From sequence record NC_052658.1: a DNA stretch of 64,000 nt; one strand, written 5' to 3'. The stretch is from Escherichia phage nepoznato. This document shows, one piece after another, positions 9,337 through 42,787 of the stretch. The notes beneath the pieces were generated by a model that ran no database searches, had not been told where the DNA came from, and saw only the letters and a list, made by a program, of their open reading frames with translations. How positions within the stretch are numbered: position 1 is the stretch's first letter; each line of letters starts with the position of its first letter. Position numbers and translations under genes: made by a program.

Positions 9337-9609
9337 GTGGAGTCTGAAGGCGAACTGCTGATAAAAAAGAAAGTTAAAGAGATGGAACAAGCACAAAGAA
9401 AGTTTCGTAAGGAGATTGAAGAACTTTGTGAACAGTTTCAGGAACAAGCTTGGATAGGTGACTACGGTAACGGAGAAACTTATTACCCTACAGGAACGCC
9501 AGCCGCAGATCACTATATTGATTTCATTTGTGAAGATTATGGTGTAGAGTTGGATGAAAATGGTTTAACCACAAGAGGTGTTTGGATCTCTTCTTCCTCA
9601 ATGTGTTAG
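9337..9609 (+). CDS. hypothetical protein
   Basis: 90-aa ORF followed by intrinsic terminator. Confidence 0.45.
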   Translation: MESEGELLIKKKVKEMEQAQRKFRKEIEELCEQFQEQAWIGDYGNGETYYPTGTPAADHYIDFICEDYGVELDENGLTTRGVWISSSSMC

Positions 9610-9618
9610 TAAATAATA

Positions 9619-9640
9619 ACCCGCTTCGGCGGGTTTTTTA
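9619..9640 (+). terminator. intrinsic terminator
   Basis: ACCCGC-UUCG-GCGGGU hairpin followed by UUUUUU. Confidence 0.7.
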
Positions 9641-9669
9641 TTGACAGAAATCTGGAAGCTTGATAAACT
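9641..9669 (+). promoter_or_regulatory. sigma70-type promoter
   Basis: TTGACA, 17-bp spacer, TAAACT; directly after terminator and before RBS GAGGAG of next gene. Confidence 0.55.
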
Positions 9670-9699: not shown

Positions 9700-10635
9700 A
9701 TGGTGTTAATTGGTAGCCGTGCATTACAAATTCATGCTATGGATATGGGAAAAGACTTGTATCGCCCTTGTGTAGATTTAGATTACCTCTGTACAGAACA
9801 AGAATGGGAAGAATTATCAAAAATGTTCTCTCAAGATGAGTTTGTTGAACTTGTAGAGCGTAAAGGGAACAAGGGCCATGTCAAAATGATAGCTGGTGCA
9901 CATTTGGAATACGATATTGCTTCTCAAGGAGATAGCACAGAAGCTTTGATTAGTTATTGTGAAGACTCTGATGATATTCGTCGAACTTACGCTGGACACG
10001 TTGTTGCTCCTTTAGATGTGCTCTACCTTCTTAAAATGAGTCATCGTTTTAAAAAGGATAGTCCTCACTTCTTTAAAACTATGAAAGATATTCATTTCAT
10101 GCGGTCACTGGGCGCAAAGATCCCAGAAAATCTTAAGAGTATTTATGAGTTGCGTGAGAAAGAAACATACACTTACTCTCATCCAAACTTAAACGTGAGA
10201 AGTAAAGACTTCTTTAAAGGTGATGAGGTTCCGTATGTTTATGATCATGACTCTATTCATGAAGCAATCGCAGTAATGGATGCTCCAGCATATAAATCTT
10301 ATATGAAAGATGGAAGTGAAGTTATGACCAGCAAAGAAAAGTTTTTTGCTCAACCAAAACATGTGCGCCTGTTAGGTGTTTATGAAGAAGCGTGTGTTTT
10401 GGCTTTGGAACGTTCACAAATTCCTTTCGGTGAAGAGATCGGAGGTCCAACCCCTAAGCAAAGTTTTATGATGGCTTTATCTAAAGTTTGCACATCTATC
10501 ACTAGTGGTTGGTTTCGTGAATATGCCTATGAATCCTTCCATGTCGTGATGAAGCTTTATGAAAGTATGGGAGAAGATGATTACATCAAAAGATTCCACG
10601 CTAATAAACACTTACTTAAACCTTTTGAGGAATAG
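9700..10635 (+). CDS. hypothetical protein (311 aa)
   Basis: Long ORF after promoter with RBS; no confident domain. Confidence 0.55.
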   Translation: MVLIGSRALQIHAMDMGKDLYRPCVDLDYLCTEQEWEELSKMFSQDEFVELVERKGNKGHVKMIAGAHLEYDIASQGDSTEALISYCEDSDDIRRTYAGHVVAPLDVLYLLKMSHRFKKDSPHFFKTMKDIHFMRSLGAKIPENLKSIYELREKETYTYSHPNLNVRSKDFFKGDEVPYVYDHDSIHEAIAVMDAPAYKSYMKDGSEVMTSKEKFFAQPKHVRLLGVYEEACVLALERSQIPFGEEIGGPTPKQSFMMALSKVCTSITSGWFREYAYESFHVVMKLYESMGEDDYIKRFHANKHLLKPFEE

Positions 10636-31617: not shown

Positions 31618-31955
31618 GATAATCTCCTCTCATCATTAGCCATCTTTCATGGCAATCATCAATCACCAACATCATACGATCAATCTTCGGCAATTACAAT
31701 CGAATTATCATAGGGGATTCCTATCAATTATCCCATATATACTGATTATTTTTGACACCCCACTCTTGTATAAAAAGTAACCCAAAATATCTACGGGGAG
31801 AGATTATTTCGGGACACCCTGTTTCATGGCAATCATGGCAAGAATATCTAATAGAATCAATATCATATGGCAAAAATCATGGCGTATACGTAAGAAGTGC
31901 TTAACGCGAATTTTCGGGCCGTCAGGTCCACGCAGCGACAATTCCCAAATATCAT

Positions 31956-31979
31956 GCGAATGAGAATAATTATCATTCG
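31956..31979. promoter_or_regulatory. Fur-box-like palindrome
   Basis: GCGAATGAGAATAATTATCATTCG; GATAAT/ATTATC hexamer arrangement. Confidence 0.3.
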
Positions 31980-32137
31980 TATTCAATGACTTATGCAAGG
32001 CTCATGCCAACATAGCGACAAGGTGGGCCACTTGATTATAAATCACACAAACACTTATTTATCAATGGTTTGGCAACTTCATCATATGACGGAACATTGT
32101 CAACTGATCCCGCTCATGACAAGCAGACTATTATTTA

Positions 32138-32156
32138 TATGAGAATGATTATTATT
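32138..32156. promoter_or_regulatory. Fur-box-like element
   Basis: ATGAGAATGATTATTATT. Confidence 0.25.
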
Positions 32157-32213
32157 TAAACGTTTATTAACATAAAAACTAAAATAAATCAAGATTATTC
32201 TGATTTTATTTAC

Positions 32214-32410
32214 GTTTAAGAGAAGGTGCTCAACATCCTACCGGATCGCCGTTGGCAATCCTGCGGATATTTACGCCCCCATGATTAAGGTTTATCTCTT
32301 TTCTTAGTGCTCAACATATCGCGTAGCGATAGTATTCGCCCCCGTGATATTTGCTCTTCTCTTAGTGCTCAACATTCCCGCCTGTGGCGGTAACATTTCG
32401 CCCCCAAAAT
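32214..32410. repeat. three direct iterons: CTTAGTGCTCAACAT box, variable short hairpin, (A)TTTCGCCCCC box
   Basis: Boxes near 32225, 32304 and 32363, each followed 30-40 bp later by CGCCCCC; spacing about 60-70 bp. Confidence 0.6.
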
Positions 32411-33050: not shown

Positions 33051-33271
33051 CACTAGAAAGGAGGTAAAAGGGTGTTTTTGATGGTTTGTTGTTGGTTGTT
33101 GATCGATTTTAACCGCTCTAAATGGCTCTCTAACAGCCTGTAACCCTGGGAGGTATGGTTATTCGTTTGCTGGTTGATTAGCTCGATACCGCGATTTATT
33201 CAGTTTTGTTCTGTGTCGGTTTTTCATAGGCGGAAGCTATCAATATTGTTCGGGCAAAAATAAAGGGCGCT

Positions 33272-33292
33272 TAGTGCGCCCCTTGTATAATC
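33272..33292 (-). terminator. intrinsic terminator (minus strand) ending the cassette array
   Basis: On minus strand GGGGCGCACUAAGCGCCC hairpin then UUUAUUUUU. Confidence 0.6.
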
Positions 33293-33661
33293 TTACTTTG
33301 TGCTGTTGTAAACGTTATCGCGTTCAACCATCACCGCAAGGCGGATCAGTTGATCAGTTGTATCGCGTAAATTGTCGGGCCATGTTTTACTGTTCCAGCT
33401 ATCCAGGTTTGATTGTATATAGGTTTCAATGGCTTGATCCATATTATCAAACAAGTTTTCCTCCAGGCTCTCGGCTGTTTCACACTGGAAAGCATTAGCG
33501 ACACTATTAATCAATAAGCAAGCCAGTAAATCAGCGTTGCGCCAATTTTTACGGATAGTTTCATCTGTCAGATAACCAACGAGATTAACCTTTGCGCCAG
33601 TGGTGGACGTTGCGATCACTTCTTGCGCTTTTTCAACTGCTTTAATTGCTGATTTGCTCAT
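33293..33661 (-). CDS. hypothetical protein (cassette 1 ORF)
   Basis: Track ORF 33293-33739 runs into the promoter; start moved to ATG (MSKSAIK) after RBS AAAGAGG. Confidence 0.5.
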   Translation of the reverse strand: MSKSAIKAVEKAQEVIATSTTGAKVNLVGYLTDETIRKNWRNADLLACLLINSVANAFQCETAESLEENLFDNMDQAIETYIQSNLDSWNSKTWPDNLRDTTDQLIRLAVMVERDNVYNSTK

Positions 33662-33677
33662 CTTCTTTTCCTCTTTG

Positions 33678-33739
33678 TGGGCTTGCTGTATTGCTCGCCC
33701 TACGTGATAAATAATAATATAAGGGTGATCCCGTGTCAA
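33678..33739 (-). promoter_or_regulatory. PeSL-like early promoter with weak leader hairpin (unit 1)
   Basis: Minus strand TTGACA, 17 bp, TATTAT, TATCACGTAGG, weak GC hairpin, RBS. Confidence 0.5.
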
Positions 33740-33877
33740 TAGGTAGAATTGTAAAGATTTGATAGTTTATCTCTTTGATGCTTTGTTGTTTGATAGATGT
33801 TAGCTATCAATATATAGCGGGGTCGTCCGGTGATTATCTTCCCTGTTTCCAGTGCCGCCCGTTCAATAAGCATAACA

Positions 33878-33905
33878 AAAAACAGGACAAAAACAAGCCC
33901 TGTTT
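33878..33905 (-). terminator. probable intrinsic terminator (minus strand)
   Basis: ACAGG...CCUGU hairpin followed by U-run on minus strand. Confidence 0.35.
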
Positions 33906-33913
33906 TGTAAAGA

Positions 33914-34117
33914 TTAGATGATCTGCATATCTTCCACGATAATTTCTAATTTCCAAACAAGATGATCTAAGCTCCCTGATAAAAATGATTCCGATACATA
34001 ACCGCCATCGGACACCGTAGCAAGGATCTCGCCATTTGCTTGCTCTTTGATTTGAACATCCAGGCGGTTAGCCTTTGCTTTGTTCAGGACGGCGATCAGG
34101 CGGTTAGCTGTAGTCAT
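33914..34117 (-). CDS. hypothetical protein (cassette 2 ORF)
   Basis: Start moved to internal ATG (MTTANRL) 20 nt after leader hairpin. Confidence 0.5.
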   Translation of the reverse strand: MTTANRLIAVLNKAKANRLDVQIKEQANGEILATVSDGGYVSESFLSGSLDHLVWKLEIIVEDMQII

Positions 34118-34140
34118 GATGTTTCTCTCTTCTGTTGTGA

Positions 34141-34197
34141 GCGGCACTATTGCCGCCCTACGTGATAAACTTTACTACCTGTTGCGCCTGCTGTCAA
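34141..34197 (-). promoter_or_regulatory. PeSL-like early promoter with leader stem-loop (unit 2)
   Basis: Minus strand TTGACA, 17 bp, TAAAGT, TATCACGTAGG, GCGGCA-AUAG-UGCCGC. Confidence 0.6.
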
Positions 34198-34198
34198 A

Positions 34199-34303
34199 CT
34201 ATTTTTTCTTTGCTTCCATTCGTCTAAGGTTACGGCTTGACTTGTTACGCAAGGCGCTCAAATCATCATAACCTTTAAAAGGTTGCATATTGTTCGGATT
34301 CAT
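34199..34303 (-). CDS. small basic protein (about 34 aa)
   Basis: Minus ORF MNPNNMQPFKGYDDL... with RBS AAGGGG; stop abuts -35 of unit 2; approximate. Confidence 0.3.
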   Translation of the reverse strand: MNPNNMQPFKGYDDLSALRNKSSRNLRRMEAKKK

Positions 34304-34313
34304 GCTACGCCCC

Positions 34314-34592
34314 TTAACGGTTATAAACGTCGTGAATAGTGATAAAGGCGCTACGACCATAAGCCGCCAAATCGGGATTGATCCAAGTGTTATCTAACAG
34401 TGTTTCAAGGACGATAGAATCATCATGAATAGCATCATAGAAATCAGGATGTATGATCGTTTCAATATCGTCCGGTGTTAGTTCCCAATTAAGGTTGCAA
34501 ACCGCTAAAACGTCTACCAATAACTTCCAATCTTGCAAATTAGTGGTTAATACTGTTTTCATTTCTTCGGTAGTGAGTTTAACGATGGTCAT
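34314..34592 (-). CDS. hypothetical acidic protein (cassette 3 ORF)
   Basis: 92-aa ORF about 20 nt after leader hairpin. Confidence 0.5.
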   Translation of the reverse strand: MTIVKLTTEEMKTVLTTNLQDWKLLVDVLAVCNLNWELTPDDIETIIHPDFYDAIHDDSIVLETLLDNTWINPDLAAYGRSAFITIHDVYNR

Positions 34593-34612
34593 GATATTTT
34601 CTCTTTTTGATG

Positions 34613-34673
34613 AGGCGGAAAGTGTTCCCGCTCTCGATGTGAAACATTATACAACACTAAAAACTGATTGCAA
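34613..34673 (-). promoter_or_regulatory. PeSL-like early promoter with leader stem-loop (unit 3)
   Basis: Minus strand TTGCAA, 16 bp, TATAAT, TTTCACATCGAGA, GCGGGAA..TTCCGCC hairpin. Confidence 0.55.
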
Positions 34674-34683
34674 GTGTTTTTAA

Positions 34684-35013
34684 TTATCGCTTGCTATTCT
34701 CTTTCTCTACTTCCCCGATAGCATCGCAAAATTGATTGATAACATCAGGGTGAACGTCAATAGCGTCAAACAATCCGCTATTAGTTGCATTTTGTAAAGC
34801 AATAGACAATTCAGCCAGGGCGTTCAATTGTTTTACACGGAATTGATCGCGGATTGAATCCATATATTCCATCACTGCACTTTCCAGTGTTTCCCATGTA
34901 GTCGCTGCACCTTCGCCTACAGTTACATCCCACAAATTAGACTCGATTTGAGTCAGTACTACAGTTGGGCGACCAGCAACAACACTGCGGGCTAATTCGA
35001 TTTCATTAAACAT
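34684..35013 (-). CDS. hypothetical protein (cassette 4 ORF)
   Basis: 109-aa ORF. Confidence 0.5.
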   Translation of the reverse strand: MFNEIELARSVVAGRPTVVLTQIESNLWDVTVGEGAATTWETLESAVMEYMDSIRDQFRVKQLNALAELSIALQNATNSGLFDAIDVHPDVINQFCDAIGEVEKENSKR

Positions 35014-35020
35014 TTTATTT

Positions 35021-35079
35021 TCCTCTTTGTGGGGAGAACTATTCTCCCCTTCATGTAAAACAGTCTACAGGTTTATTTC
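35021..35079 (-). promoter_or_regulatory. PeSL-like early promoter with leader stem-loop (unit 4)
   Basis: Minus strand TTGACA, 16 bp, TAGACT, TTTTACATGAA, GGGGAGAA-UAG-UUCUCCCC. Confidence 0.6.
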
Positions 35080-35089
35080 TCAATGTCAA

Positions 35090-35269
35090 CTATTTATTAT
35101 CGGGATTGTAAGCCAGGACCGCGCCACTTGCTTTCACCGCCCCAGCCTCATAGCTGCGTAAATCTTCCTCGGTGATATTCATTGCGATCACTTCCTCGAC
35201 CTCTACGCCAGTAGCAAGGGCGATCTCTTTGATGATATTTGATGTTTTGATAATGTCGATAGTTTTCAT
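35090..35269 (-). CDS. hypothetical protein
   Basis: Track ORF 35090-35317; start moved to ATG (MKTIDIIK) after AAGGGG. Confidence 0.45.
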   Translation of the reverse strand: MKTIDIIKTSNIIKEIALATGVEVEEVIAMNITEEDLRSYEAGAVKASGAVLAYNPDNK

Positions 35270-35279
35270 AGTAAGCCCC

Positions 35280-35399
35280 TTACAGAAGAATAGCCGCGAT
35301 GGTTGAAATGAAAGCAATAACAGCGACGATGATCATCATGTTTTTACCTTCGGTTACTGCTACGTTTTCGGTGCTGTATTCTACGGTATATTTGCTCAT
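35280..35399 (-). CDS. small tail-anchored membrane peptide (about 39 aa; cassette 5 ORF)
   Basis: MSKYTVEYSTENVAVTEGKNMMIIVAVIAFISTIAAILL; first ORF after unit 5 leader. Confidence 0.4.
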   Translation of the reverse strand: MSKYTVEYSTENVAVTEGKNMMIIVAVIAFISTIAAILL

Positions 35400-35415
35400 C
35401 TTTCTACCCTCGTTT

Positions 35416-35475
35416 GTGGTTGGCTGTTGTCGCCGCCCTATGTATTTAATATACACTACCACGGCAGCATTGCAA
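35416..35475 (-). promoter_or_regulatory. PeSL-like early promoter with weak leader hairpin (unit 5)
   Basis: Minus strand TTGCAA, 16 bp, TATATT, TACATAGG, GC-rich leader. Confidence 0.5.
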
Positions 35476-35488
35476 GTTTATTTTGCAA

Positions 35489-35779
35489 TTATTTTTCTTC
35501 TGTAAAAAGCCCATCATTAACAACGGCGGCGATGATTTCACGGGCCATTGATTCGGGAAACGGTAGGCTATAATCCTGGCTTGTTTCATCTTCGCAAGAT
35601 ACCCAATGATAAGCTAATGAATAATACCCCTTAGAAACGGTTTTCAGGCTAACAATGATCACGGTGTTTTGTTCGTTGGTAAACGTCGCCGTGATGGTCT
35701 GGTCGTTTTGCACCATATCCATCAAACGGGCGTTATCATTTACCAGGGAAAACATTAGCACGGTGTTAGCTTTACTCAT
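35489..35779 (-). CDS. hypothetical protein (cassette 6 ORF)
   Basis: Start moved to ATG (MSKANTV) 20 nt after leader hairpin. Confidence 0.5.
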   Translation of the reverse strand: MSKANTVLMFSLVNDNARLMDMVQNDQTITATFTNEQNTVIIVSLKTVSKGYYSLAYHWVSCEDETSQDYSLPFPESMAREIIAAVVNDGLFTEEK

Positions 35780-35799
35780 GATTGCATCCTCAAAGGGGC

Positions 35800-35854
35800 G
35801 CGGCACCATTGCCGCCCTACACGATAACTATAACACAATGTAAAACAGGATCAA
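35800..35854 (-). promoter_or_regulatory. PeSL-like early promoter with leader stem-loop (unit 6)
   Basis: Minus strand TTGATC, 16 bp, TATAGT, ATCGTGTAGG, GCGGCA-AUGG-UGCCGC. Confidence 0.55.
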
Positions 35855-36057
35855 CCTTTATTTTTCCACGGTGTCAGCTTGTTAATCATTGGTGATAAAT
35901 AGCGTTTACCAACGTAAAACAGTACGCCAACTGATGCAACGGCGGCGACCTCATGCATAGCCGACGGGAAACGGGTATCATAATAAGATCCAATAATAGC
36001 GATAGCGGCAACGGCTGCAACGTCGATAATGATTTTTTCTTGTTTTGCGGTGATCAT
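35851..36057 (-). CDS. small membrane protein (cassette 7 ORF)
   Basis: 68 aa with hydrophobic AAVAAIAIIGS and VAAVASVGVLFYVG segments. Confidence 0.5.
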   Translation of the reverse strand: MITAKQEKIIIDVAAVAAIAIIGSYYDTRFPSAMHEVAAVASVGVLFYVGKRYLSPMINKLTPWKNKG

Positions 36058-36079
36058 AATATTTACCTTTTTGTATGGT

Positions 36080-36136
36080 GGGGAACTATTCCCCGCCTGA
36101 TGTAATACAGTTTAACAGGTCCGGTTATGGTGTCAA
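36080..36136 (-). promoter_or_regulatory. PeSL-like early promoter with leader stem-loop (unit 7)
   Basis: Minus strand TTGACA, 16 bp, TAAACT, TATTACATCAGGC, GGGGAA-UAG-UUCCCC. Confidence 0.6.
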
Positions 36137-36142
36137 CCGTTT

Positions 36143-36328
36143 TTAAAGATATTTTATGCTAATAACGTTTTCCGGTTTAACCTTGTTATAATGTGCATCA
36201 ACATAGATCAAACCATCGTCAGAAAAGCCCAGGATCACGCCCTGCGCAATAAAACCGTATTCGTCACGGTAACGCACGGCTATTTTTAATGTTGCGCTGT
36301 ACGCTGTTTTAAGCTCGTTTAAAGTCAT
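36143..36328 (-). CDS. hypothetical protein
   Basis: 61-aa ORF after a terminator-like hairpin and RBS GAGGAT. Confidence 0.45.
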   Translation of the reverse strand: MTLNELKTAYSATLKIAVRYRDEYGFIAQGVILGFSDDGLIYVDAHYNKVKPENVISIKYL

Positions 36329-36357
36329 TTTTGTTTATCCTCTACATGTAAAAAGAA

Positions 36358-36381
36358 AGGGCGCTTGGTGCGCCCTTGTTA
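36358..36381 (-). terminator. intrinsic terminator or attenuator inside the array
   Basis: On minus strand AAGGGCGCACCAAGCGCCCUU then UUCUUUUU; near-identical to 33272 hairpin. Confidence 0.5.
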
Positions 36382-36383
36382 TG

Positions 36384-36530
36384 TTAATCCTCTAAATCCA
36401 TCCAATTATATTTGTCACTCTTCCCGCGCTTTGTTTTATTACGCTTGTCGCCTTTGCGGATCACTTCCTCGTTCCAGGCCTTGCGGATCTTGGAAGATTG
36501 AATTTTTTCTGCGCGATTAGATGTATTCAT
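36384..36530 (-). CDS. small basic protein (about 48 aa; cassette 8 ORF)
   Basis: MNTSNRAEKIQSSKIRKAWNEEV...; RBS AAGAGGAAAC; below track cutoff. Confidence 0.4.
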   Translation of the reverse strand: MNTSNRAEKIQSSKIRKAWNEEVIRKGDKRNKTKRGKSDKYNWMDLED

Positions 36531-36550
36531 TTTGTTTCCTCTTCATATGA

Positions 36551-36603
36551 GCGGCACCATTGCCGCTATATTGTTAATTTAAACTGTTTTGTAAAATTGT
36601 CAA
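36551..36603 (-). promoter_or_regulatory. PeSL-like early promoter with leader stem-loop (unit 8)
   Basis: Minus strand TTGACA, 16 bp, TAAATT, GCGGCA-AUGG-UGCCGC. Confidence 0.55.
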
Positions 36604-36609
36604 GGTTTA

Positions 36610-36960
36610 TCATTCATAAGAGCAAGCAAGGATCACGCCTGCAATATAAAGCCAATAATTTTCCCTTTCTCGTTGGATTTTATCATCGCGGCTATTCTCT
36701 TTAATGTATCCCCAGGATGTTAACAGGCGATCAATTTCCCAATATTCGAAAGCGATATTGATATCTGATGGCAAACCTTGTAACCAACTTGCCAGGGCGC
36801 GGACTATTGATCCGTTATATCGTTTTTGATTATCAGGGTACCAGTACTCTGATTCAAAGCGGCGCATCAGTTCGGCTATCTTCTCTTTTTCGCCAGTGAT
36901 GCCATAGTCGATTGATGCTAGGATGTAACCTTTAATTTCGTTTTGTGCTTTCATGGTCAA
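36610..36960 (-). CDS. hypothetical protein
   Basis: 116-aa ORF immediately downstream of 36967-37188 (co-transcribed). Confidence 0.5.
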   Translation of the reverse strand: MTMKAQNEIKGYILASIDYGITGEKEKIAELMRRFESEYWYPDNQKRYNGSIVRALASWLQGLPSDINIAFEYWEIDRLLTSWGYIKENSRDDKIQRERENYWLYIAGVILACSYE

Positions 36961-36966
36961 TCTCTC

Positions 36967-37188
36967 TTATTTACTTACAACCAGTTGATAACCGTTTTCT
37001 ACATTGCTAAACACTGTTAGCCCGTCGTCGCGCTCACTCATCAACAAGCAAGGCGATAACATGCGTTCGGCAGCTTTACACTCATTATAAGCGGCAGTGA
37101 TGTCTCCTGCTGCCTTGTCTTCTGTAGTAAATGTCTCGTTTACGTAAACCTGACCAGCAACAACGGCGACAATAGCAAAAGTAATCAT
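36967..37188 (-). CDS. hypothetical protein (cassette 9 ORF)
   Basis: 73-aa ORF with N-terminal hydrophobic segment. Confidence 0.5.
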   Translation of the reverse strand: MITFAIVAVVAGQVYVNETFTTEDKAAGDITAAYNECKAAERMLSPCLLMSERDDGLTVFSNVENGYQLVVSK

Positions 37189-37221
37189 GATGTTTCCTTG
37201 TTAATAGTGGTTTCTCTTCTC

Positions 37222-37259
37222 TATAGCGCCCATTATAAAGCGCTATAACGAAAAGTCAA
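37222..37259 (-). promoter_or_regulatory. sigma70 promoter with -10 inside an 8-bp-arm palindrome (operator-like; unit 9)
   Basis: Minus strand TTGACT, 16 bp, TATAAT; TATAGCGC-N10-GCGCTATA inverted repeat spans the -10. Confidence 0.55.
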
Positions 37260-37262
37260 CGA

Positions 37263-37430
37263 TTATTTTTTAAGGCTTAAAGTACCTAACTTGTCAGCAT
37301 GACGCAGACCAGGGAAGATCCATTTGCCTGATTCATCTTTTACCGGAGCTTTAAGCGTAGCGCCCAGGTTGGCGGCGTTAACTTTACGTGCAACGTTGCG
37401 AGCGGCTTCACGGGTAGCGCAAGTGATCAT
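37263..37430 (-). CDS. small protein (about 55 aa; cassette 10 ORF)
   Basis: MITCATREAARNVARKVNAANLG...; 20 nt after unit 10 hairpin; below track cutoff. Confidence 0.35.
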   Translation of the reverse strand: MITCATREAARNVARKVNAANLGATLKAPVKDESGKWIFPGLRHADKLGTLSLKK

Positions 37431-37454
37431 GATGTTTTCCTCTTCTCTTTGTTA

Positions 37455-37516
37455 GGCGGTGGACCATTCCGCCGCCTTGATGTAATACAGTTTACTCTTT
37501 TTCTTTCCGGTGTCAA
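37455..37516 (-). promoter_or_regulatory. PeSL-like early promoter with leader stem-loop (unit 10)
   Basis: Minus strand TTGACA, 16 bp, TAAACT, TATTACATCAAGG, 9-bp stem with G-U wobble and AUGG loop. Confidence 0.6.
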
Positions 37517-37526
37517 CAATCTTTTT

Positions 37527-37754
37527 TCAGATTAATTCATCCAGGCATAACAGGCGATCAACGTTGAGATCGGTTAGGCTGATGGTTGGCACCTGGTAGG
37601 ATTCGATGTACTCAACGCTCGACCATTGCCCGAAGTTAGCGACCGCCCAGCTATTCAAGGAAGAGTGAAGATCATCCCCTTTCTTCTCGGTGATAACTGC
37701 TACTACCTGGGAAGTGCCAACGGTGCCGGATACGCGAACAATATTGATAGCCAT
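37527..37754 (-). CDS. hypothetical protein (cassette 11 ORF)
   Basis: 75-aa ORF 20 nt after leader hairpin. Confidence 0.5.
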   Translation of the reverse strand: MAINIVRVSGTVGTSQVVAVITEKKGDDLHSSLNSWAVANFGQWSSVEYIESYQVPTISLTDLNVDRLLCLDELI

Positions 37755-37777
37755 GATTTTTCTCTCTTCTGTTAGGC

Positions 37778-37832
37778 GGGGCGCTTGTCGCCCCTATGTG
37801 ATACATCTTACACTAATTTTAAACGTTGTCAA
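37778..37832 (-). promoter_or_regulatory. PeSL-like early promoter with leader stem-loop (unit 11)
   Basis: Minus strand TTGACA, 16 bp, TAAGAT, TATCACATAGG, GGGCGACAAGCGCCCC hairpin. Confidence 0.6.
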
Positions 37833-37927
37833 ATTATTTTCTATTTCTTCCGTAATAGCCCAATTTATGATCTAAGCTAAAACGTTTTGTTAGATAGGTA
37901 GAACGATGTTTCATTTTTATATCTCCT

Positions 37928-38167
37928 TTACATTCCAACCATCGCGGCGCGGATCGCTGTAGTGCTATACTTGAAACCGTCTGGAGTTTTATCTTGTCCA
38001 GTTTGTTCCAGGAATAACATCATATCACGGGCAGCATCATTACGATTAGTATTAGCGGCGATAAATTCTTTCGCCAACCGATATAACGATTCATCGTTAT
38101 TAATCCAAAGGCTTACATTCCAATGAGTTTTATTTTTGTGACCTAAGAACATTTTTGATTTAGCCAT
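37928..38167 (-). CDS. hypothetical protein (cassette 12 ORF)
   Basis: 79-aa ORF. Confidence 0.5.
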   Translation of the reverse strand: MAKSKMFLGHKNKTHWNVSLWINNDESLYRLAKEFIAANTNRNDAARDMMLFLEQTGQDKTPDGFKYSTTAIRAAMVGM

Positions 38168-38192
38168 GATGTTAATCTCTTTTTTCAGTGAG

Positions 38193-38251
38193 GCGGGAAG
38201 TGTTCCCGCTCTCTATGTAATACAGTTTACTCTTTTTATTCGTGCTGTCAA
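38193..38251 (-). promoter_or_regulatory. PeSL-like early promoter with leader stem-loop (unit 12)
   Basis: Minus strand TTGACA, 16 bp, TAAACT, TATTACATAGAGA, GCGGGAA-CAC-UUCCCGC. Confidence 0.6.
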
Positions 38252-38257
38252 TGCTTT

Positions 38258-38623
38258 TTATAAATCTTTTTTACGTTTAACATCGCTCGCATGACTGTAT
38301 ACAGTGATCCCATTATCACGGCAAAAACGGGAAAGATACGCGCCGCGTGAAAACTCTTTACCTTCCATATTAATAACCTTGCTAAATTCTTCCAGGGCGA
38401 CGGTATCAAAATGATCACCATAACCATATTGAAACGGAACGTTAACCACCTCGATCAGTTTACCGCCGATCTCAACGTCAACCATTAAAGAAAAATATGT
38501 ATTACCGTAGGACTGTTGAAACCAACGACGGGCGCTAATATGCACCGCCTCAATGCTGGATAGTTCAATTTTAGCCGTGTCAGCCAGGGTAGCATAAGAG
38601 GAAACATTAATATTAATAGCCAT
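38258..38623 (-). CDS. hypothetical protein (cassette 13 ORF)
   Basis: 121-aa ORF. Confidence 0.5.
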   Translation of the reverse strand: MAININVSSYATLADTAKIELSSIEAVHISARRWFQQSYGNTYFSLMVDVEIGGKLIEVVNVPFQYGYGDHFDTVALEEFSKVINMEGKEFSRGAYLSRFCRDNGITVYSHASDVKRKKDL

Positions 38624-38645
38624 GATGATAACCTTTTTATTGTTG

Positions 38646-38701
38646 GCGGCACCATTGCCGCCCTACGTGATAAACTATAACAGAATTTTAAACAATGTCA
38701 A
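38646..38701 (-). promoter_or_regulatory. PeSL-like early promoter with leader stem-loop (unit 13)
   Basis: Minus strand TTGACA, 16 bp, TATAGT, TATCACGTAGG, GCGGCA-AUGG-UGCCGC. Confidence 0.6.
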
Positions 38702-38711
38702 ACGTTTTTTC

Positions 38712-38957
38712 TTAGTTTGCGAAATATGGCGCGGCGGCTGATGCCGTTAAGCTCCAAGTGATTTGACTATCGATCAAGTATTCTTCATTCTTGATCCGCA
38801 CGGTATCAATCGAGAAGTTACTAAAAGGTTTACTTTTAATTTTACGAACAACCGTTACACGACGGTTATTTTTCATCTCTTTTAACTGAATCCAGGCGAA
38901 ACCTTTTTCATTAACGAAAATTTCATTGTGGTTAGTGATAGATGATAAGTGTTTCAT
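38712..38957 (-). CDS. hypothetical protein (cassette 14 ORF)
   Basis: Start moved to ATG (MKHLSSI); the track N-terminus YHVGRR is just the translated leader. Confidence 0.5.
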   Translation of the reverse strand: MKHLSSITNHNEIFVNEKGFAWIQLKEMKNNRRVTVVRKIKSKPFSNFSIDTVRIKNEEYLIDSQITWSLTASAAAPYFAN

Positions 38958-38980
38958 GATTTTTCTCTCTTCTGTTTTGA

Positions 38981-39040
38981 GCGGTGGACCATTCCGCCGC
39001 CCTACGTGATACATATTACTACTTTTTCAAACGTTGTCAA
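38981..39040 (-). promoter_or_regulatory. PeSL-like early promoter with leader stem-loop (unit 14)
   Basis: Minus strand TTGACA, 16 bp, TAATAT, TATCACGTAGG, 8-bp stem with AUGG loop. Confidence 0.6.
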
Positions 39041-39049
39041 CAATCTTTT

Positions 39050-39331
39050 TCAACTATATGATCCGCACCGTTCGCAATAGTGATCTTCTTCCTCTTCCAC
39101 TACTTGACCGACAAAATGATCAACCTTTGATTTCAGGCTTTTATAATTACTTTCTACTTCCTGTAGTCGTCGTTGGTAGTATTCCAGGGCTTGCACATAT
39201 GCCGCTTGTTCTGTTTTAGCTTGCATCGCTAAATTCATGCCGCGCGTGTCATCATACAACCAATAACCATCATTGCATTCACTGATTGACAGTGTGGGGC
39301 TTAGTTTTTCGTGACGGATAACCTTGCTCAT
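39050..39331 (-). CDS. hypothetical protein with C-terminal Cys pair
   Basis: Track ORF 39050-39364; probable start MSKVIRHEKL; ends CERCGSYS. Confidence 0.45.
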   Translation of the reverse strand: MSKVIRHEKLSPTLSISECNDGYWLYDDTRGMNLAMQAKTEQAAYVQALEYYQRRLQEVESNYKSLKSKVDHFVGQVVEEEEDHYCERCGSYS

Positions 39332-39341
39332 AGTGTGCGCC

Positions 39342-39446
39342 TTATAGAATGATTGAAACAACAATTGCTACAGTGATCCACACTGGAACGGCTAACAAAA
39401 TAGCGTTAATCGTTCCAACCGTCAAGCTATTTCCTTTATTAATCAT
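39342..39446 (-). CDS. small membrane peptide (about 34 aa; cassette 15 ORF)
   Basis: MINKGNSLTVGTINAILLAVPVWITVAIVVSIIL; RBS AAGAGG; approximate. Confidence 0.35.
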   Translation of the reverse strand: MINKGNSLTVGTINAILLAVPVWITVAIVVSIIL

Positions 39447-39475
39447 TGTAAGCCTCTTGCATAATTTCACTATGA

Positions 39476-39532
39476 GCGGCACCATTGCCGCCCTACGTGG
39501 TAAATATTATGCCAGTGGCGGCGATATGTCAA
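39476..39532 (-). promoter_or_regulatory. PeSL-like early promoter with leader stem-loop (unit 15)
   Basis: Minus strand TTGACA, 17 bp, TAATAT, TACCACGTAGG, GCGGCA-AUGG-UGCCGC; 42-bp core identical to unit 18. Confidence 0.6.
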
Positions 39533-40086
39533 AGACTATTTTCAAAGTTTTCTAGGGCGATCCTTTTTTCTTCCTCTGTCGGCTGATAATCAGGAAAAGC
39601 ATCAGCACACAACAACGGCGGGATCTCTTCGTACTCTTCCTCTTCCGTTGTCTCCTCGTCTTCCTCCTGGGCTATGGCTGCAATTTTGGCTAATTTTCTT
39701 TCAGCTTGAATCAATTTACCATCAAGTACGTTTTTTGCCATGTTGTAAGCGGTCCAGGTGATGCGCTTACTTTCCAGGGCCTGATCGAGCGCCGCTATCT
39801 TGCTGGGGTATTCATCCAGGACACGAAAAGCCGGATCAACTTTGTACAAAGGATTATCTTTCGCGCCGTCGCTCGCATCTTCCGCACTGGATAAATCAGC
39901 GTTACCATTTGCCAGCCAGCCAGGGCGCACATAACGCGCTTTTATGTTGCCGTTACTACGTGCTAACCTGTTACCTATTTGCTCACCGCTATATCCCGTG
40001 GATTCATCGATAAGATGATCGGGAATGATGCGCGGATCATCTGCTTCATGTTTTACCCAAGACTGGATCACATATTCGCGGCCCAT
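39529..40086 (-). CDS. hypothetical protein with acidic C-terminal region
   Basis: Start moved to ATG (MGREYV) after AGGTGG; co-transcribed with 40088-40345. Confidence 0.5.
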   Translation of the reverse strand: MGREYVIQSWVKHEADDPRIIPDHLIDESTGYSGEQIGNRLARSNGNIKARYVRPGWLANGNADLSSAEDASDGAKDNPLYKVDPAFRVLDEYPSKIAALDQALESKRITWTAYNMAKNVLDGKLIQAERKLAKIAAIAQEEDEETTEEEEYEEIPPLLCADAFPDYQPTEEEKRIALENFENSL

Positions 40087-40087
40087 A

Positions 40088-40345
40088 TTAACCACCTTTT
40101 TTCAACAATCGGCATACTTTAAAAAGACTTGCTGAATCCTTGCAAGGGTAGAAAGATGTACGATAATCACGTACGCCAACCTTGCGGATCTCGATGTTTT
40201 CGCATGTTGTTTGATCAAAGATATTTATTTCATCACGCCCCCTTATATAAACATAGTGGGGATGTATTAACGCATATTTTGCTAATCTGTAAAAAGCGTT
40301 ATCTTTGAACGCGATCACGTGACCTTTTAATTTGATGTAAAACAT
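40088..40345 (-). CDS. hypothetical protein (cassette 16 ORF)
   Basis: 85-aa ORF after RBS AAGGTGG. Confidence 0.5.
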   Translation of the reverse strand: MFYIKLKGHVIAFKDNAFYRLAKYALIHPHYVYIRGRDEINIFDQTTCENIEIRKVGVRDYRTSFYPCKDSASLFKVCRLLKKGG

Positions 40346-40363
40346 TCTACCACCTTACAAATA

Positions 40364-40418
40364 GCGGGAACTATTCCCGCTTTATGTAACATATTAACAA
40401 ATTAGTCGTTAATGTCAA
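40364..40418 (-). promoter_or_regulatory. PeSL-like early promoter with leader stem-loop (unit 16)
   Basis: Minus strand TTGACA, 16 bp, TAATAT, TTACATAAA, GCGGGAA-UAG-UUCCCGC. Confidence 0.6.
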
Positions 40419-40421
40419 GCC

Positions 40422-40694
40422 TTAAAGCAAAAACGCTACATCTTGCGCTTTTAATGTAGTGTCAACCATTTTTGGGCTTTTATAATCAACAAAACGCGCG
40501 GTTTTTTCAATAGCAAAACCGAGATAATCTTGTTTATTGAATTTACATTCTTTCTTAAATGTTTCCCGCGCCACGGTGATCGCTGCGTCCAGGGATAAAC
40601 GCCCGTCAATGTTGATATTTGCGAAAGATCCGCCACCGCTCATAGGTTTACCAGTGGTGCCAGCTACGATCATTGTTGCGCTATATGATGCCAT
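40422..40694 (-). CDS. hypothetical protein (cassette 17 ORF)
   Basis: Start moved to ATG (MASYSATMIV). Confidence 0.5.
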   Translation of the reverse strand: MASYSATMIVAGTTGKPMSGGGSFANINIDGRLSLDAAITVARETFKKECKFNKQDYLGFAIEKTARFVDYKSPKMVDTTLKAQDVAFLL

Positions 40695-40719
40695 GATTAT
40701 AATCTCTCTTCTGTTGTGA

Positions 40720-40780
40720 GCGGCTGAACCATTCCGCCGCCCTATGTGATACATCTTATCAGGTTGTTGGTTGTTGTCAA
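40720..40780 (-). promoter_or_regulatory. PeSL-like early promoter with leader stem-loop (unit 17)
   Basis: Minus strand TTGACA, 16 bp, TAAGAT, TATCACATAGG, 8-bp stem with AUGG loop. Confidence 0.6.
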
Positions 40781-40786
40781 TACTTT

Positions 40787-40984
40787 TTATTCTATTCCTG
40801 CAATCTGATTAACGCGTTTGCATTTTGTAGCGTGCTGGTCTTCTGTAATTACTCCCATTTCTAACAGTGAATCAATGAAAGATAAAACCGTTTCATGATC
40901 ATCCTGGGGATGACTGAACTCAGTAAAACCGTTTACTACCACGTTTATTTGTCCAGCTTTCGCCACAATGTGCAATGTTGCCAT
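40787..40984 (-). CDS. hypothetical protein (cassette 18 ORF)
   Basis: Start moved to ATG (MATLHIV). Confidence 0.5.
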   Translation of the reverse strand: MATLHIVAKAGQINVVVNGFTEFSHPQDDHETVLSFIDSLLEMGVITEDQHATKCKRVNQIAGIE

Positions 40985-41005
40985 GATTTTAACTCCAAAT
41001 AATGA

Positions 41006-41062
41006 GCGGCACCATTGCCGCCCTACGTGGTAAATATTATGCCGCCACCTGGCGAACGTCAA
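41006..41062 (-). promoter_or_regulatory. PeSL-like early promoter with leader stem-loop (unit 18)
   Basis: Minus strand TTGACG, 17 bp, TAATAT, TACCACGTAGG, GCGGCA-AUGG-UGCCGC. Confidence 0.6.
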
Positions 41063-41171
41063 TCACTTTTTCAATCTTTTTTATTTTCTTTTTGCTTGCT
41101 ATATATAAAAGAAAGGGCTATCATCTTTCTACCGCGCCAACCTGGGCGCACATCAAAGAAAGGGCGATACC

Positions 41172-41438
41172 ATGACAAATACTACATTACACCTTATGCA
41201 CTCATTGGGCTGGCAAGGCGGCACGGTGCACCAGGTAGCAAGCGCAACGGGCTTAAAGGTTGAAACCGTTCTCAACCTATCAGATTATAAGGTCGAGGAT
41301 AGTTATCAATTACAAAGTTACACGGGCGGTTTTACCTGGGCGCGTGAAGGTGGGAAAGAAAGCAATATACCACATTGGGGAAAAGGTGATATTCATTTTT
41401 GGCTAGGTGTCCTGACCTGGCAAGAAAACAAAAAATAA
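41172..41438 (+). CDS. hypothetical protein
   Basis: 88-aa plus-strand ORF diverging from the minus array. Confidence 0.45.
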   Translation: MTNTTLHLMHSLGWQGGTVHQVASATGLKVETVLNLSDYKVEDSYQLQSYTGGFTWAREGGKESNIPHWGKGDIHFWLGVLTWQENKK

Positions 41439-41440
41439 TC

Positions 41441-41469
41441 TTGACAAGCCCAGGGATCGGGCTTATACT
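41441..41469 (+). promoter_or_regulatory. sigma70-type promoter with PeSL-like leader, no downstream ORF
   Basis: TTGACA, 17 bp, TATACT, then GTTTTACATACAG and GC-rich hairpins; no plus ORF of 20 aa or more before 42.2 kb. Confidence 0.5.
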
Positions 41470-41477
41470 GTTTTACA

Positions 41478-41600
41478 TACAGAAGAGGAAGCGCCACCCC
41501 CACGGCGTAAAGGCGGGGCTAACATACCAGGGGCACTGGTTGGAAGGTTGATCGCCGGTAGGCTGGGCGCTATATATTTGTAAAGAAATGTAAAGATAAA
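41478..41600 (+). ncRNA. candidate structured non-coding transcript or leader
   Basis: About 80-nt GC-rich segment flanked by GCGCC...GGCGC with internal hairpins, downstream of the consensus promoter; not tRNA-like. Confidence 0.25.
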
Positions 41601-41699
41601 ATAATCGCTTGCTTTCCTGGCTGGATCTGTTATTCTTATTACATGGCGAGGGGACACGGGAGCGCGAGACAAACACCGCCCCTGCGCGTCATTCTCTAA

Positions 41700-41720
41700 A
41701 TGAGAATGATTATCATTTAC
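41700..41720. promoter_or_regulatory. Fur-box-like palindrome (AATGAT-T-ATCATT)
   Basis: GAGAATGATTATCATTTAC; perfect 6-1-6 inverted repeat. Confidence 0.35.
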
Positions 41721-41759
41721 TTTATTAAATAAGAATCAATCTCATTTATAAACCTAAAT

Positions 41760-41778
41760 GCGAATCATTATCATTTGC
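41760..41778. promoter_or_regulatory. Fur-box-like element
   Basis: GCGAATCATTATCATTTGC. Confidence 0.3.
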
Positions 41779-42159
41779 ATTTCCACATGAGAACTCTTCT
41801 CATTCCCATCTGCATAAATTTTTGTAAACTTTAAATTTTGCTTTTGTACTTTCATTTTTGTAAAAGCAAAAAAACTTTAAATACTGTGGGCGCGCAAAAT
41901 TTTTAAAATTTTCCTTGACTTTTGAGTTTTGTTTTGTATCTGACATTTTAAGATAATTTTCCTAAACTTTAAATTTTGGTTTTCAACTTTCACTTTTGTA
42001 AATTCTTAAAAAGTTTAAATAATTTGAGGGATTTTTGAGATAATGGATAGTGGGAATTTGATATAACCTTTAATCTTATTAGTAGACCTTCAGGAACCCA
42101 CCTAGATCGAATCCTGGTGATGCAAACTGAAAAAGACAAGGGTTTGTATAGGACAAAAT

Positions 42160-42195
42160 AATAGGCTCTCTACGGTGCTGTAGGAGCCTTATTTC
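42160..42195 (+). terminator. long hairpin with U-tract at convergent junction
   Basis: AGGCTCTCTAC...GTAGGAGCCT stem followed by TATTTCT. Confidence 0.5.
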
Positions 42196-42244
42196 TGTGC
42201 TACAAAGTGACACCTTTGTTCTAAAAATGAAAAAAGTTAAAATA

Positions 42245-42787
42245 TCACAAATATCGTCTTTGCGGTATTTTGTCTGGGAAAAGTATTTCGATCAGTTTGT
42301 TATGATATTTACCTAAAAGATTTTGCCCTTTCCAGTTGACCGGATTTAGCACCCCTGGTTCATACATCCCCATTCCAATTCCGTAAACCTTATCGTAGGG
42401 GCTTGCTTCAACAAACGTTTTGTATTGGTAAAGGTGTAAGTCTGCATACAAATCTGGATTCTGTACATATTTCAAGCATAAACCTCGCATAACAATACGC
42501 TCACGGTTCTCTTCCCATACGTTGTTATCAAAATCCGACACTGCCCTACCCATACGTTTGTAATAAGCTTGGATCTTCTCATCTTTCCGTATCAAACTAT
42601 GAGTCAGAATAGCCTGTGCAGTGTTGTGGTCATTAAAAAGCAAAGCTTTACGCCACATCATATATTGTTCGACACAATTAAATGTTTGATTGTAACCTGG
42701 TTCGGTTTCTGTAAAGGGTGCAATATACCAATTACTAAACACATCTTTATGTGAAAAGAAGAATACATAATCATCAGTTATTCGCAT
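42245..42787 (-). CDS. NADAR-domain (YbiA-like, DUF1768) protein
   Basis: FFFSHKDVFSNWY, EQYMMWRKA, YGIGMG and WKGQNLLGKYHNKL blocks matching the NADAR/YbiA family. Confidence 0.7.
   Translation of the reverse strand: MRITDDYVFFFSHKDVFSNWYIAPFTETEPGYNQTFNCVEQYMMWRKALLFNDHNTAQAILTHSLIRKDEKIQAYYKRMGRAVSDFDNNVWEENRERIVMRGLCLKYVQNPDLYADLHLYQYKTFVEASPYDKVYGIGMGMYEPGVLNPVNWKGQNLLGKYHNKLIEILFPDKIPQRRYL

Follow-up and report, generated by a model that had tools for sequence, protein, structure and literature searches.

The window (the whole 64,000-nucleotide stretch of DNA analysed) carries at 41698-41805 a phased array of sequences that read as operators for the host protein Fur. The array belongs to a conserved module at a phage chromosome boundary, with homology to a part of the T5 iss region, and as far as sequence goes its reading as Fur boxes has good support. 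Our best explanation, which we regard as an even call, is that a four-unit, 29-bp-phased array of high-affinity host-Fur operators acts as a protein-DNA boundary of the early block of the phage.

The array consists of four tandem 21-bp dyad iterons of the form AAATGAGAAT-N-ATTnTCATTT (repeat family D6), with a 29-bp period and starts at 41698, 41727, 41756 and 41785:

41698-41718, unstranded: iteron 1, AAATGAGAATGATTATCATTT, an exact match to the pattern, holding the first palindrome
41727-41747, unstranded: iteron 2, AAATAAGAATCAATCTCATTT, 29 bp after iteron 1, 16/19 to the gpmA operator
41756-41776, unstranded: iteron 3, AAATGCGAATCATTATCATTT (with TGCATTTCCAC), 18/19 to the gpmA operator, holding the second palindrome
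41785-41805, unstranded: iteron 4, ACATGAGAACTCTTCTCATTC, degenerate, with a perfect dyad ATGAGAA-N3-TTCTCAT, 16/20 to the iteron consensus and in the 29-bp phase

The initial annotation had described here a pair of palindromes 60 bp apart. Both palindromes are real, GAGAATGATTATCATTTAC at 41702-41720 and GCGAATCATTATCATTTGC at 41760-41778, but they are units 1 and 3 of four phased units, and the true spacing of their starts is 58 bp, that is, 2 × 29. The perfect 6-1-6 inverted repeat AATGAT-T-ATCATT that had been seen in the first of them is indeed present (41705-41717), and so is the placement at the start of an AT-rich tract: the GC content is 0.28 at 41696-41812 and 0.24 at 41813-42070, versus 0.53 in the block just upstream and 0.39 in the window. 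When the 64-kb window is searched with the pattern AAATGAGAATNATTNTCATTT allowing up to 3 mismatches, we observe 11 matches at 6 sites (31958, 32137, 32186, 41698, 41727 and 41756). Shuffles of the window produce 0.13 ± 0.44 matches, and 0 of 100 reach 11. All matches are confined to two clusters that flank an array of genes, one at 31958-32206 and the other at 41698-41776.

At the level of sequence, the phage iterons are top-tier Fur operators. Compared with the 19-bp Fur consensus GATAATGATAATCATTATC, 41702-41720 agrees at 16 of 19 positions, which is the best score in the 64-kb window, and 41760-41778 agrees at 14 of 19; the stretch TGAGAAT-G-ATTATCA is one base short of the 7-1-7 Fur form. 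We also used blast to compare a 32-nt T5-type iteron with 5,426 complete E. coli genomes, and inspected three of the matching loci, of which the two chromosomal ones are the mntH and gpmA promoters. The gpmA operator AATGAGAATCATTATCATT has 18 of its 19 bases in common with iteron 1, the central base being the difference, and 18 of 19 with iteron 3, the difference being one base of a dyad arm. The mntH operator AAATGAGAATGATTATCA, beside an MntR box, is the first 18 bases of iteron 1. With 27.4 bits, the gpmA site shares the top rank among the Fur sites of K-12, and it is gel-shift positive; the mntH Fur site has 19.9 bits and is located at -56 (Chen et al. 2007, PMC2189734). Near identity to these two verified E. 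coli operators bears out the earlier description of the palindromes as Fur-box-like. Judging from the match, Fur would very probably bind the iterons in vitro; that Fur binding is also the function for which they have been selected seems to us somewhat better than an even bet.

Host operators and phage iterons are alike in sequence, and both fit the 6-1-6, 7-1-7 and 19-bp models of the Fur box, but their arrangement is different. Host Fur operators overlap promoters (303 of the 363 E. coli Fur clusters overlap a strong one), and their neighbouring sites are 3 or 6 bp apart, so that the sub-sites overlap (Chen et al. 2007, PMC2189734), whereas the phage has four full sites with a 29-bp spacing in a non-promoter position. 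The sole promoter-like match over the iterons is a weak one (9/12, at 41745-41774 on the plus strand). No Fur homologue was found to be encoded in the window using an approximate E. coli Fur sequence as the query. The searchable literature yielded nothing relevant on a connection of Fur boxes with T5, phAPEC8 or phage infection, and in it we found no phased array of top-strength Fur operators at a conserved non-promoter position in a lytic phage.

In order to place the cluster on the chromosome, we need the identity of the phage and of its ends. By megablast, the window comes from a Phapecoctavirus, a phAPEC8-like E. coli myophage of the Stephanstirmvirinae, with ~98% identity to SKA64 and anhysbys. 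It covers 43% of the phage genome, and a phage-encoded protein that binds the iterons could sit in the remainder. On the far side of the gene array, the relevant features are:

33200-41062, minus strand: the gene array, ~30 small genes read in the direction of the terminal repeat (annotated in anhysbys and phAPEC8; repeat families D1-D7)
31902-32230, unstranded: the equivalent of the direct terminal repeat (chromosome end), where the exact 329-bp end repeat of Schickermooser maps with 96.7% identity
31958-31978, 32137-32157 and 32186-32206, unstranded: sister sites in the terminal-repeat equivalent, from matches to the iteron pattern

Each gene of the array has its own sigma-70 promoter and 5′ hairpin, and the promoters are annotated in phAPEC8, as predictions of PHIRE and MEME. 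For the Phapecoctavirus Schickermooser, a terminal repeat of 328 bp has been reported (Korf et al. 2019, PMC6563267), and its sequence record carries an exact 329-bp repeat at the ends. By homology to Schickermooser, the other flank of the array (31902-32230) is the physical chromosome end. Since the end repeat maps there, the array would be the terminal ~9.8 kb of the virion DNA. By the same homology, the iteron cluster is the inner boundary of a terminal ~9.8-kb early-gene block whose outer boundary is the short direct terminal repeat; the distance from the cluster to the repeat equivalent is 9,468-9,796 bp.

The initial annotation had also proposed that the sites mirror motifs at 31.9-32.5 kb and bracket the gene array on both sides. 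Both proposals hold, the mirrored motifs lying at 31.9-33.05 kb, and the layout is conserved in other genera. The functions that it suggested fare less well. Coordinated control of the array is not borne out: none of the array promoters is overlapped by the sites, and such promoter-like matches as coincide with them are weak. A packaging role agrees with the other flank, where the sites at 31958 and 32137 are inside the homologue of the Schickermooser repeat; for the flank studied here, which is 9.5-9.8 kb away from it, such a role is conjectural.

Several other readings of this part of the genome were tried and rejected. A long T5-like terminal repeat spanning the array is ruled out by the short repeats of the relatives, determined from coverage or from end overlap. 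An apparent 1.5-kb insertion in SKA64 and other relatives is an alignment artefact of an exact 42-bp duplicate (39472-39513 and 41002-41043). As for a tRNA array, the annotation of Klebsiella phage K45PH128C2 places a tRNA-Ile and a tRNA-Met on the homologous stretch, but ARAGORN and Rfam support neither, and find no tRNA genes or Rfam families in the window, a permissive scan of 41000-42300 included.

The cluster is embedded in a larger module with a recognizable set of elements:

41441-41469, plus strand: promoter P1, TTGACA-17-TATACT, 11/12 to sigma-70, of the array-promoter family but facing the iterons
41476-41560, plus strand: GC-rich structured block, a candidate ncRNA or DNA element, 70-78% identical across subfamilies, mostly without an annotated gene
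41609-41636, plus strand: promoter P2, TTGCTT-16-TATTCT, from alignments, its position kept in six genera
41688-41710, plus strand: terminator-like hairpin GTCATTCTC-TAAAT-GAGAATGAT, from a terminator scan, its 3′ arm being the left half of iteron 1
41817-42026, unstranded: AT-rich tract holding a 72-bp direct repeat in two copies (41817-41888 and 41955-42026; family D10, 82% identity)
42035-42044, plus strand: TTGAGATAAT, the core of T5 direct repeat A copies 2/3, closing the module on the interior side

P1 is an inverted copy of the promoter and 5′-UTR sequence of the array (repeats I5, I13 and I21), and it is conserved across genera. P2 is clearer in other genera (TTGCAA-17-TATATT), and a consensus scan misses it in the window phage. 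Seunavirus and Mydovirus show a further promoter, P3, immediately behind the iterons; in the window phage it is not clear. In the RNAalifold consensus of the GC-rich block there are 16 base pairs, of which one covaries (A-U/G-C 11:9), and an apical hairpin that varies; the block has no Rfam or tRNA match. The 72-bp repeats are lineage-specific, and they stand in the place of the T5 DRD and of GATC-rich repeats in other genera. The first nine bases of the closing 10-mer, TTGAGATAA, occur only once in the window, and the same relative position is taken by 10026-10064 in T5 and by GAGATAA motifs in other genera. We find no DnaA box (TTATCCACA with at most one mismatch) in 41000-42300, and no IHF sites in the module. 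The T5 nick octamer CCCTGCGC adjoins iteron 1, which is not significant by itself. No ORF was found to span the iteron cluster. The neighbouring genes encode a NADAR protein, a CapR-domain endonuclease and an AAA ATPase, and there is no initiator or terminase gene near the module. At ~42151-42188, on the minus strand, the interior operon has a terminator of its own.

The module is deeply conserved. A distant blastn comparison of 41440-42250 finds 41472-41752 conserved at 70-78% nucleotide identity in two subfamilies of rV5-like phages, in the genera Justusliebigvirus, Vequintavirus, Seunavirus, Certrevirus and Mydovirus, where it is mostly unannotated; the rV5 genome paper notes just a "non-coding" box, and no defined origin. 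From side-by-side reading and an alignment of 20 sequences, the common order of the module is P1, the GC-rich block, TTTGTAAAGAAATGTAAAGA, P2, the hairpin, the iterons, lineage-specific short repeats and a GAGATAA motif. The number of iterons varies across genera from 1 to 5. The first one is at a fixed distance from the conserved block and the others follow exactly 29 bp apart, an arrangement that we see in Phapecoctavirus, Justusliebigvirus, Certrevirus, Seunavirus and Mydovirus. Iteron 1 keeps its fixed position in 15 of 16 rV5-like contigs from IMG/VR and in the GenBank relatives compared, and iteron 2 is kept as AAATAAGAATGCTTCTCATTC in Mydovirus.

The layout with two clusters is also shared by relatives whose ends are known. 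As an example, in the Vequintavirus HdK5 the repeat is exact and 459 bp long, one iteron is 8 bp away from the end, and the boundary module is found at 11.4-11.85 kb. The Mydovirus KPP-1 has a 514-bp repeat, determined from coverage and PhageTerm (PMC9862379); we find sites in and beside this terminal repeat, and the boundary iterons are 8.3-8.8 kb away. In Schickermooser the distance from the boundary to the end is ~14 kb, and thus the distance, which ranges from 8.3 to 14 kb among the relatives, is not fixed. The start of the ETEC-TG record at the edge of the module is uninformative as a terminus, because that record is circular. Beyond the rV5-like phages, the exact 21-mer is found at 117 IMG/VR loci. 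Several uncultured contigs that are unrelated to T5 or to the window phage beyond the motif have 4-7 copies with a 28-30 bp period, and in one contig of 270 kb the array of sites is inside a divergent intergenic region of 960 bp.

The same motif is found in T5. In T5-like phages, the iterons have blastn matches of 77-85% identity over 55-95 bp. The T5 palindromes E, G and I and the direct repeat C copies 1-4 (9472-9631), which belong to Repeat Region 3 of the left terminal repeat, are the same 21-bp motif. T5 palindrome G differs from iteron 1 at the central base alone, and iteron 3 with its flank is almost identical to T5 direct repeat C / palindrome G, AAATGAGAATCATTATCATTTGCATTTCAC. Repeat Region 3 has been proposed as a candidate injection stop signal, with a calculated shear point for first-step transfer (FST) at 9618; it also carries DnaA boxes, and the palindromes E, G and I, to which that work gives no function, are said in it to be possible cleavage sites, with Fur going unmentioned (Davison, bioRxiv 10.1101/866236). 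The 7.9% nick of T5 is annotated at 9661-9668, in or next to the iteron cluster.

The two phages share more than the motif. Both have several non-coding copies of the 21-bp sequence with the flank TTGCATTTC, placed at the inner edge of a ~10-kb terminal, host-transcribed early block, and in both the iterons are followed by short lineage-specific repeats and then by the TTGAGATAAT motif. The boundary is 9.47-9.80 kb from the terminal-repeat equivalent in the window phage (by homology to Schickermooser) and at 9.47-9.63 kb in T5. The differences are also clear. In T5 a terminal repeat of 10.1 kb takes up the whole block, made up of pre-early genes, whereas in the window phage a 329-bp repeat (again by homology) is found at the far end of the block. 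In T5, DnaA boxes (IRD′-spacer-IRC′) precede the iterons and DRD follows them, and the window phage has neither; the T5 iterons are irregularly spaced, by 23-46 bp, in contrast with the strict 29 bp here; and T5 has a strand nick after the iterons, while the window phage has the conserved promoter and structured-RNA block before them. A search by tblastn for a phage protein common to the T5 terminal repeat and the window returned only noise. Since the same motif is present in T5 with no homologue of a T5 terminal-repeat protein, and no Fur homologue, in the window, a shared host factor is the simpler explanation. A host protein also accounts better than a cognate phage protein for a motif that does not change between unrelated phages when its neighbouring repeats do so with lineage.

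Our proposal for how the array would work is as follows. After DNA entry, Fe2+-Fur dimers would fill the four sites, covering ~110 bp; four times 29 bp is about 11 helical turns, and the result could be a stable nucleoprotein block. Its most likely local effect would be that of a barrier: transcription running rightward from P1 and P2 would end at the hairpin over iteron 1, and the early terminal block would be insulated from the interior operon. The conserved non-coding module (the early-type promoters P1 and P2, the GC-rich block, the Fur iterons, the AT-rich repeats and the GAGATAAT motif) would mark where the early block ends on its inner side. Sequence identity with verified Fur operators, phasing, conservation and position relative to the chromosome end are what we observe; from them we infer occupancy by Fur in vivo and all function downstream of it.

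A transcription barrier is the simplest reading of a bound array. The roadblock idea is weakened by the finding that Fur bound downstream of a promoter represses only weakly (Chen et al. 2007, PMC2189734). Also against a barrier, host clusters normally overlap promoters, and the 29-bp spacing is absent from the host pattern in that same study. The T5 module sits where first-step DNA transfer halts, which makes a role in DNA entry or end processing, by analogy, a serious second possibility. The pointers in that direction are the sister sites associated with the chromosome end, the T5 shear point and the Fur sites of nohA and nohB. A host-factor site in a phage packaging region has a known example in the IHF site I1 of lambda cosB. 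The nohA and nohB Fur sites, which we take to be at the cos location, resemble it in that a site for a host DNA-binding protein is found beside a chromosome end or packaging region; the likeness applies to our sister cluster alone, which is at the end, whereas the cluster studied is 9.5-9.8 kb from the terminal repeat. The two strong sites are upstream of the Nu1-like genes nohB (25.3 bits) and nohA (22.3 bits, gel-shift positive) in cryptic lambdoid prophages (Chen et al. 2007, PMC2189734). The boldest version of this idea would be that the Fur array is the core of a boundary signal common to T5-like and rV5-like phages, at which host Fur, by itself or together with other factors, causes or stabilizes a pause in DNA transfer. 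We think this unlikely.

Other explanations dispense with Fur. The iterons could bind a phage-encoded or virion protein (an initiator, a small terminase or an injection protein) as part of an origin or of a packaging or ejection signal, with the likeness to Fur operators being incidental or mimicry. With promoters nearby, four dyad iterons that adjoin a repeat-bearing AT-rich tract (24% GC) are indeed laid out in the classic manner of iteron origins such as lambda ori and those of theta plasmids, and the equivalent region in T5 has DnaA boxes. Three genera carry sister sites within or next to their terminal repeats, that of HdK5 almost at the physical end, and the ends of the phiWec189 record overlap by 148 bp, a stretch that begins at an iteron and stops within the following one. 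On the other hand, iteron origins have their cognate initiator gene at or beside the origin, and here we have repeats of a host-operator sequence, equal to it base for base, with no initiator or terminase gene adjacent and no DnaA boxes in the module. The sites of a cognate protein normally diverge by lineage, as the accompanying repeats do, but this 21-mer is common to phage families with no detectable shared protein in the regions compared, and to unrelated uncultured phages. The cluster at 41698-41805 does not coincide with physical DNA ends, although its sister does: terminal repeats measured by coverage are short and 8-14 kb away, and the phiWec189 overlap is ambiguous as a terminus, as sister records from the same laboratory start elsewhere. 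We consider a phage-protein target rather unlikely.

Alternatively, the palindromes could act as DNA structure, in the form of hairpins or cruciforms that pause translocation through the portal and tail or that mark a nuclease site. As single-stranded DNA, 41685-41815 folds with -19 kcal/mol versus -7.6 in shuffles (z = -5.1), with iterons 1 and 2 pairing over ~23 bp, and in T5 the FST shear point, the nick and the suggested cleavage sites all fall in or next to the cluster. But any similar array of palindromes would fold well, and thus the fold is not independent evidence; the stems are short and AT-rich; and structure leaves unexplained why sequence, beyond symmetry, is conserved across families and why it is identical to that of Fur operators. 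We find this quite improbable. We give least credence to a view in which nothing is conserved but an intrinsic terminator, that of a small early RNA made from P2; iteron 1 would provide its 3′ stem, the other copies being functionless duplicates produced by slippage. The hairpin at 41688-41710 does overlap iteron 1, the two-hairpin RNA fold of 41640-41725 has z = -3.6, and the ATTCT...GAGAAT pairs are kept in seven genera, but they are mostly invariant, and such minimal covariation offers weak support for a small RNA. Moreover, iterons 2-4 have no upstream partner and yet keep a full dyad and the exact 29-bp phase in several genera, and the motif is found in terminal repeats and in T5 outside any such RNA context. 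Finally, Fur might bind for a different purpose, in that replicated genomes, with ~8-10 strong sites each multiplied by copy number, would act as a sponge that titrates Fur, derepresses host iron uptake and so supplies iron enzymes of the phage. Titration by multicopy Fur boxes is an established assay. A sponge does not need a fixed position at a chromosome-end boundary, and T5, which has the array, destroys the host DNA early, so that derepression would be pointless there; as a general role we think it very unlikely.

Returning to the host-Fur array, Fur boxes are textbook promoter operators, and what we describe is a phased array of them in a conserved non-promoter position, found both at genome ends and at the limit of the early block on its inner side. 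The T5 palindromes at the point where first-step transfer stops consist of the same motif, and Fur is thus a named, purchasable host candidate for a question that dates from the 1960s. If the proposal of a shared transfer pause were true, rV5-like phages would deliver their terminal early block first, and Fur would be the missing trans-acting factor in the 50-year-old T5 injection-stop problem. Arrays of Fur sites phased at 28-30 bp would then be a widespread, undescribed phage cis-element that links DNA entry or end processing to the iron status of the host. The idea is thereby raised that rV5-like therapeutic phages may sense host iron status. And even if Fur does not bind, the module is a deeply conserved cis-element in a phage group that is widely used for therapy.

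Two elements of the boundary module are associated with a conserved or predicted RNA fold:

41476-41560, plus strand: GC-rich conserved block, GCGCCACCCCCACGGCGTAAAGGCGGGGCTAACATACCAGG..CTGGTTGGAAGGTTGATCGCC, with the promoter P1 (41441-41469) upstream.
41609-41720, plus strand: conserved promoter P2, followed by an RNA of about 75 nt with two hairpins.

The GC-rich block is deeply conserved, and every rV5-like genus examined carries it. Its consensus structure comprises 16 pairs, among them one clean covariation (A-U/G-C, 11:9), along with an apical hairpin that varies, and a search of Rfam returned no match for the block. We consider it a candidate early ncRNA or, alternatively, a DNA element. 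The predicted two-hairpin transcript of P2 has an RNA fold z of -3.6, and its terminator-like hairpin shares bases with iteron 1. The promoter-hairpin-iteron unit occurs as a tandem duplicate in Vequintavirus, where the loop AGACAAnCA is conserved.

Two short motifs lie upstream of iteron 1. The sequence GTAAAGAAATGTAAA (GTAAA-N5-GTAAA, 41580-41594) has a single copy in the 64 kb and is kept across genera; it has the form of the CpxR box and is a candidate for one. Ten bp upstream of the iteron, CCCTGCGC (41680-41687) is the octamer annotated as the 7.9% nick site of T5. Because the window holds 2 copies vs. 0.43 expected, the presence of this octamer beside iteron 1 is not significant alone.

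As for the genome ends, the relevant features are on the other side of the array:

31902-32230, no strand assigned: counterpart of Schickermooser's direct terminal repeat (329 bp).
32299-32386: 58-bp repeats, within a non-coding stretch that continues beyond the terminal-repeat equivalent to about 33.2 kb.

Given this equivalence with Schickermooser, the physical ends of the genome are probably at 31902-32230. The same non-coding stretch includes an unusual tract rich in T and G (32.7-33.0 kb).

The record of phiWec189 (LC739538.1) has ends that share an exact 148-bp overlap inside the boundary module, from the first base of one iteron to base 12 of the following one; its sister records, made in the same laboratory, have different start points, so this overlap is ambiguous as real ends. 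In Klebsiella phage K45PH128C2, GenBank places a tRNA-Ile and a tRNA-Met on the minus strand over the conserved block and the iterons (1616-1769), an annotation that is probably wrong since neither ARAGORN nor Rfam finds a tRNA there. And a 1.5-kb insertion reported by BLAST in relatives is false, an artifact that arises because a terminator/promoter unit within the array is present in two copies identical over 42 bp (39472-39513 and 41002-41043).

Tandem arrays of 4-7 copies of the Fur-type 21-mer that makes up the iterons, often with a period of 28-30 bp, are also found on IMG/VR contigs of uncultured phages unrelated to T5 or nepoznato:

L064, 5018-5229: array.
L133, 2215-2343: array.
L036, 5779-5907: array.
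L062, 11036-11670: array.
L048, L052, L102 and L124: arrays on further contigs.

For L064 and L062, GenBank has no close relatives.

In T5 (AY587007), TGATAATCATTATCA at 232-246 forms a Fur core with perfect 7-1-7 symmetry; it falls within the dmp coding region, some 230 bp in from the left end. T5, too, therefore has a Fur-type site near the outer edge of its terminal repeat. In E. coli K-12 (NC_000913.3), AGATGATAATTATTATCATTT at 580591-580611 lies within the cryptic prophage DLP12 and probably corresponds to the nohB site that Chen et al. 2007 (PMC2189734) score at 25.3 bits; the nohA site is gel-shift positive. The nohA and nohB cases show that small-terminase-like genes of lambdoid type can have strong Fur sites upstream.
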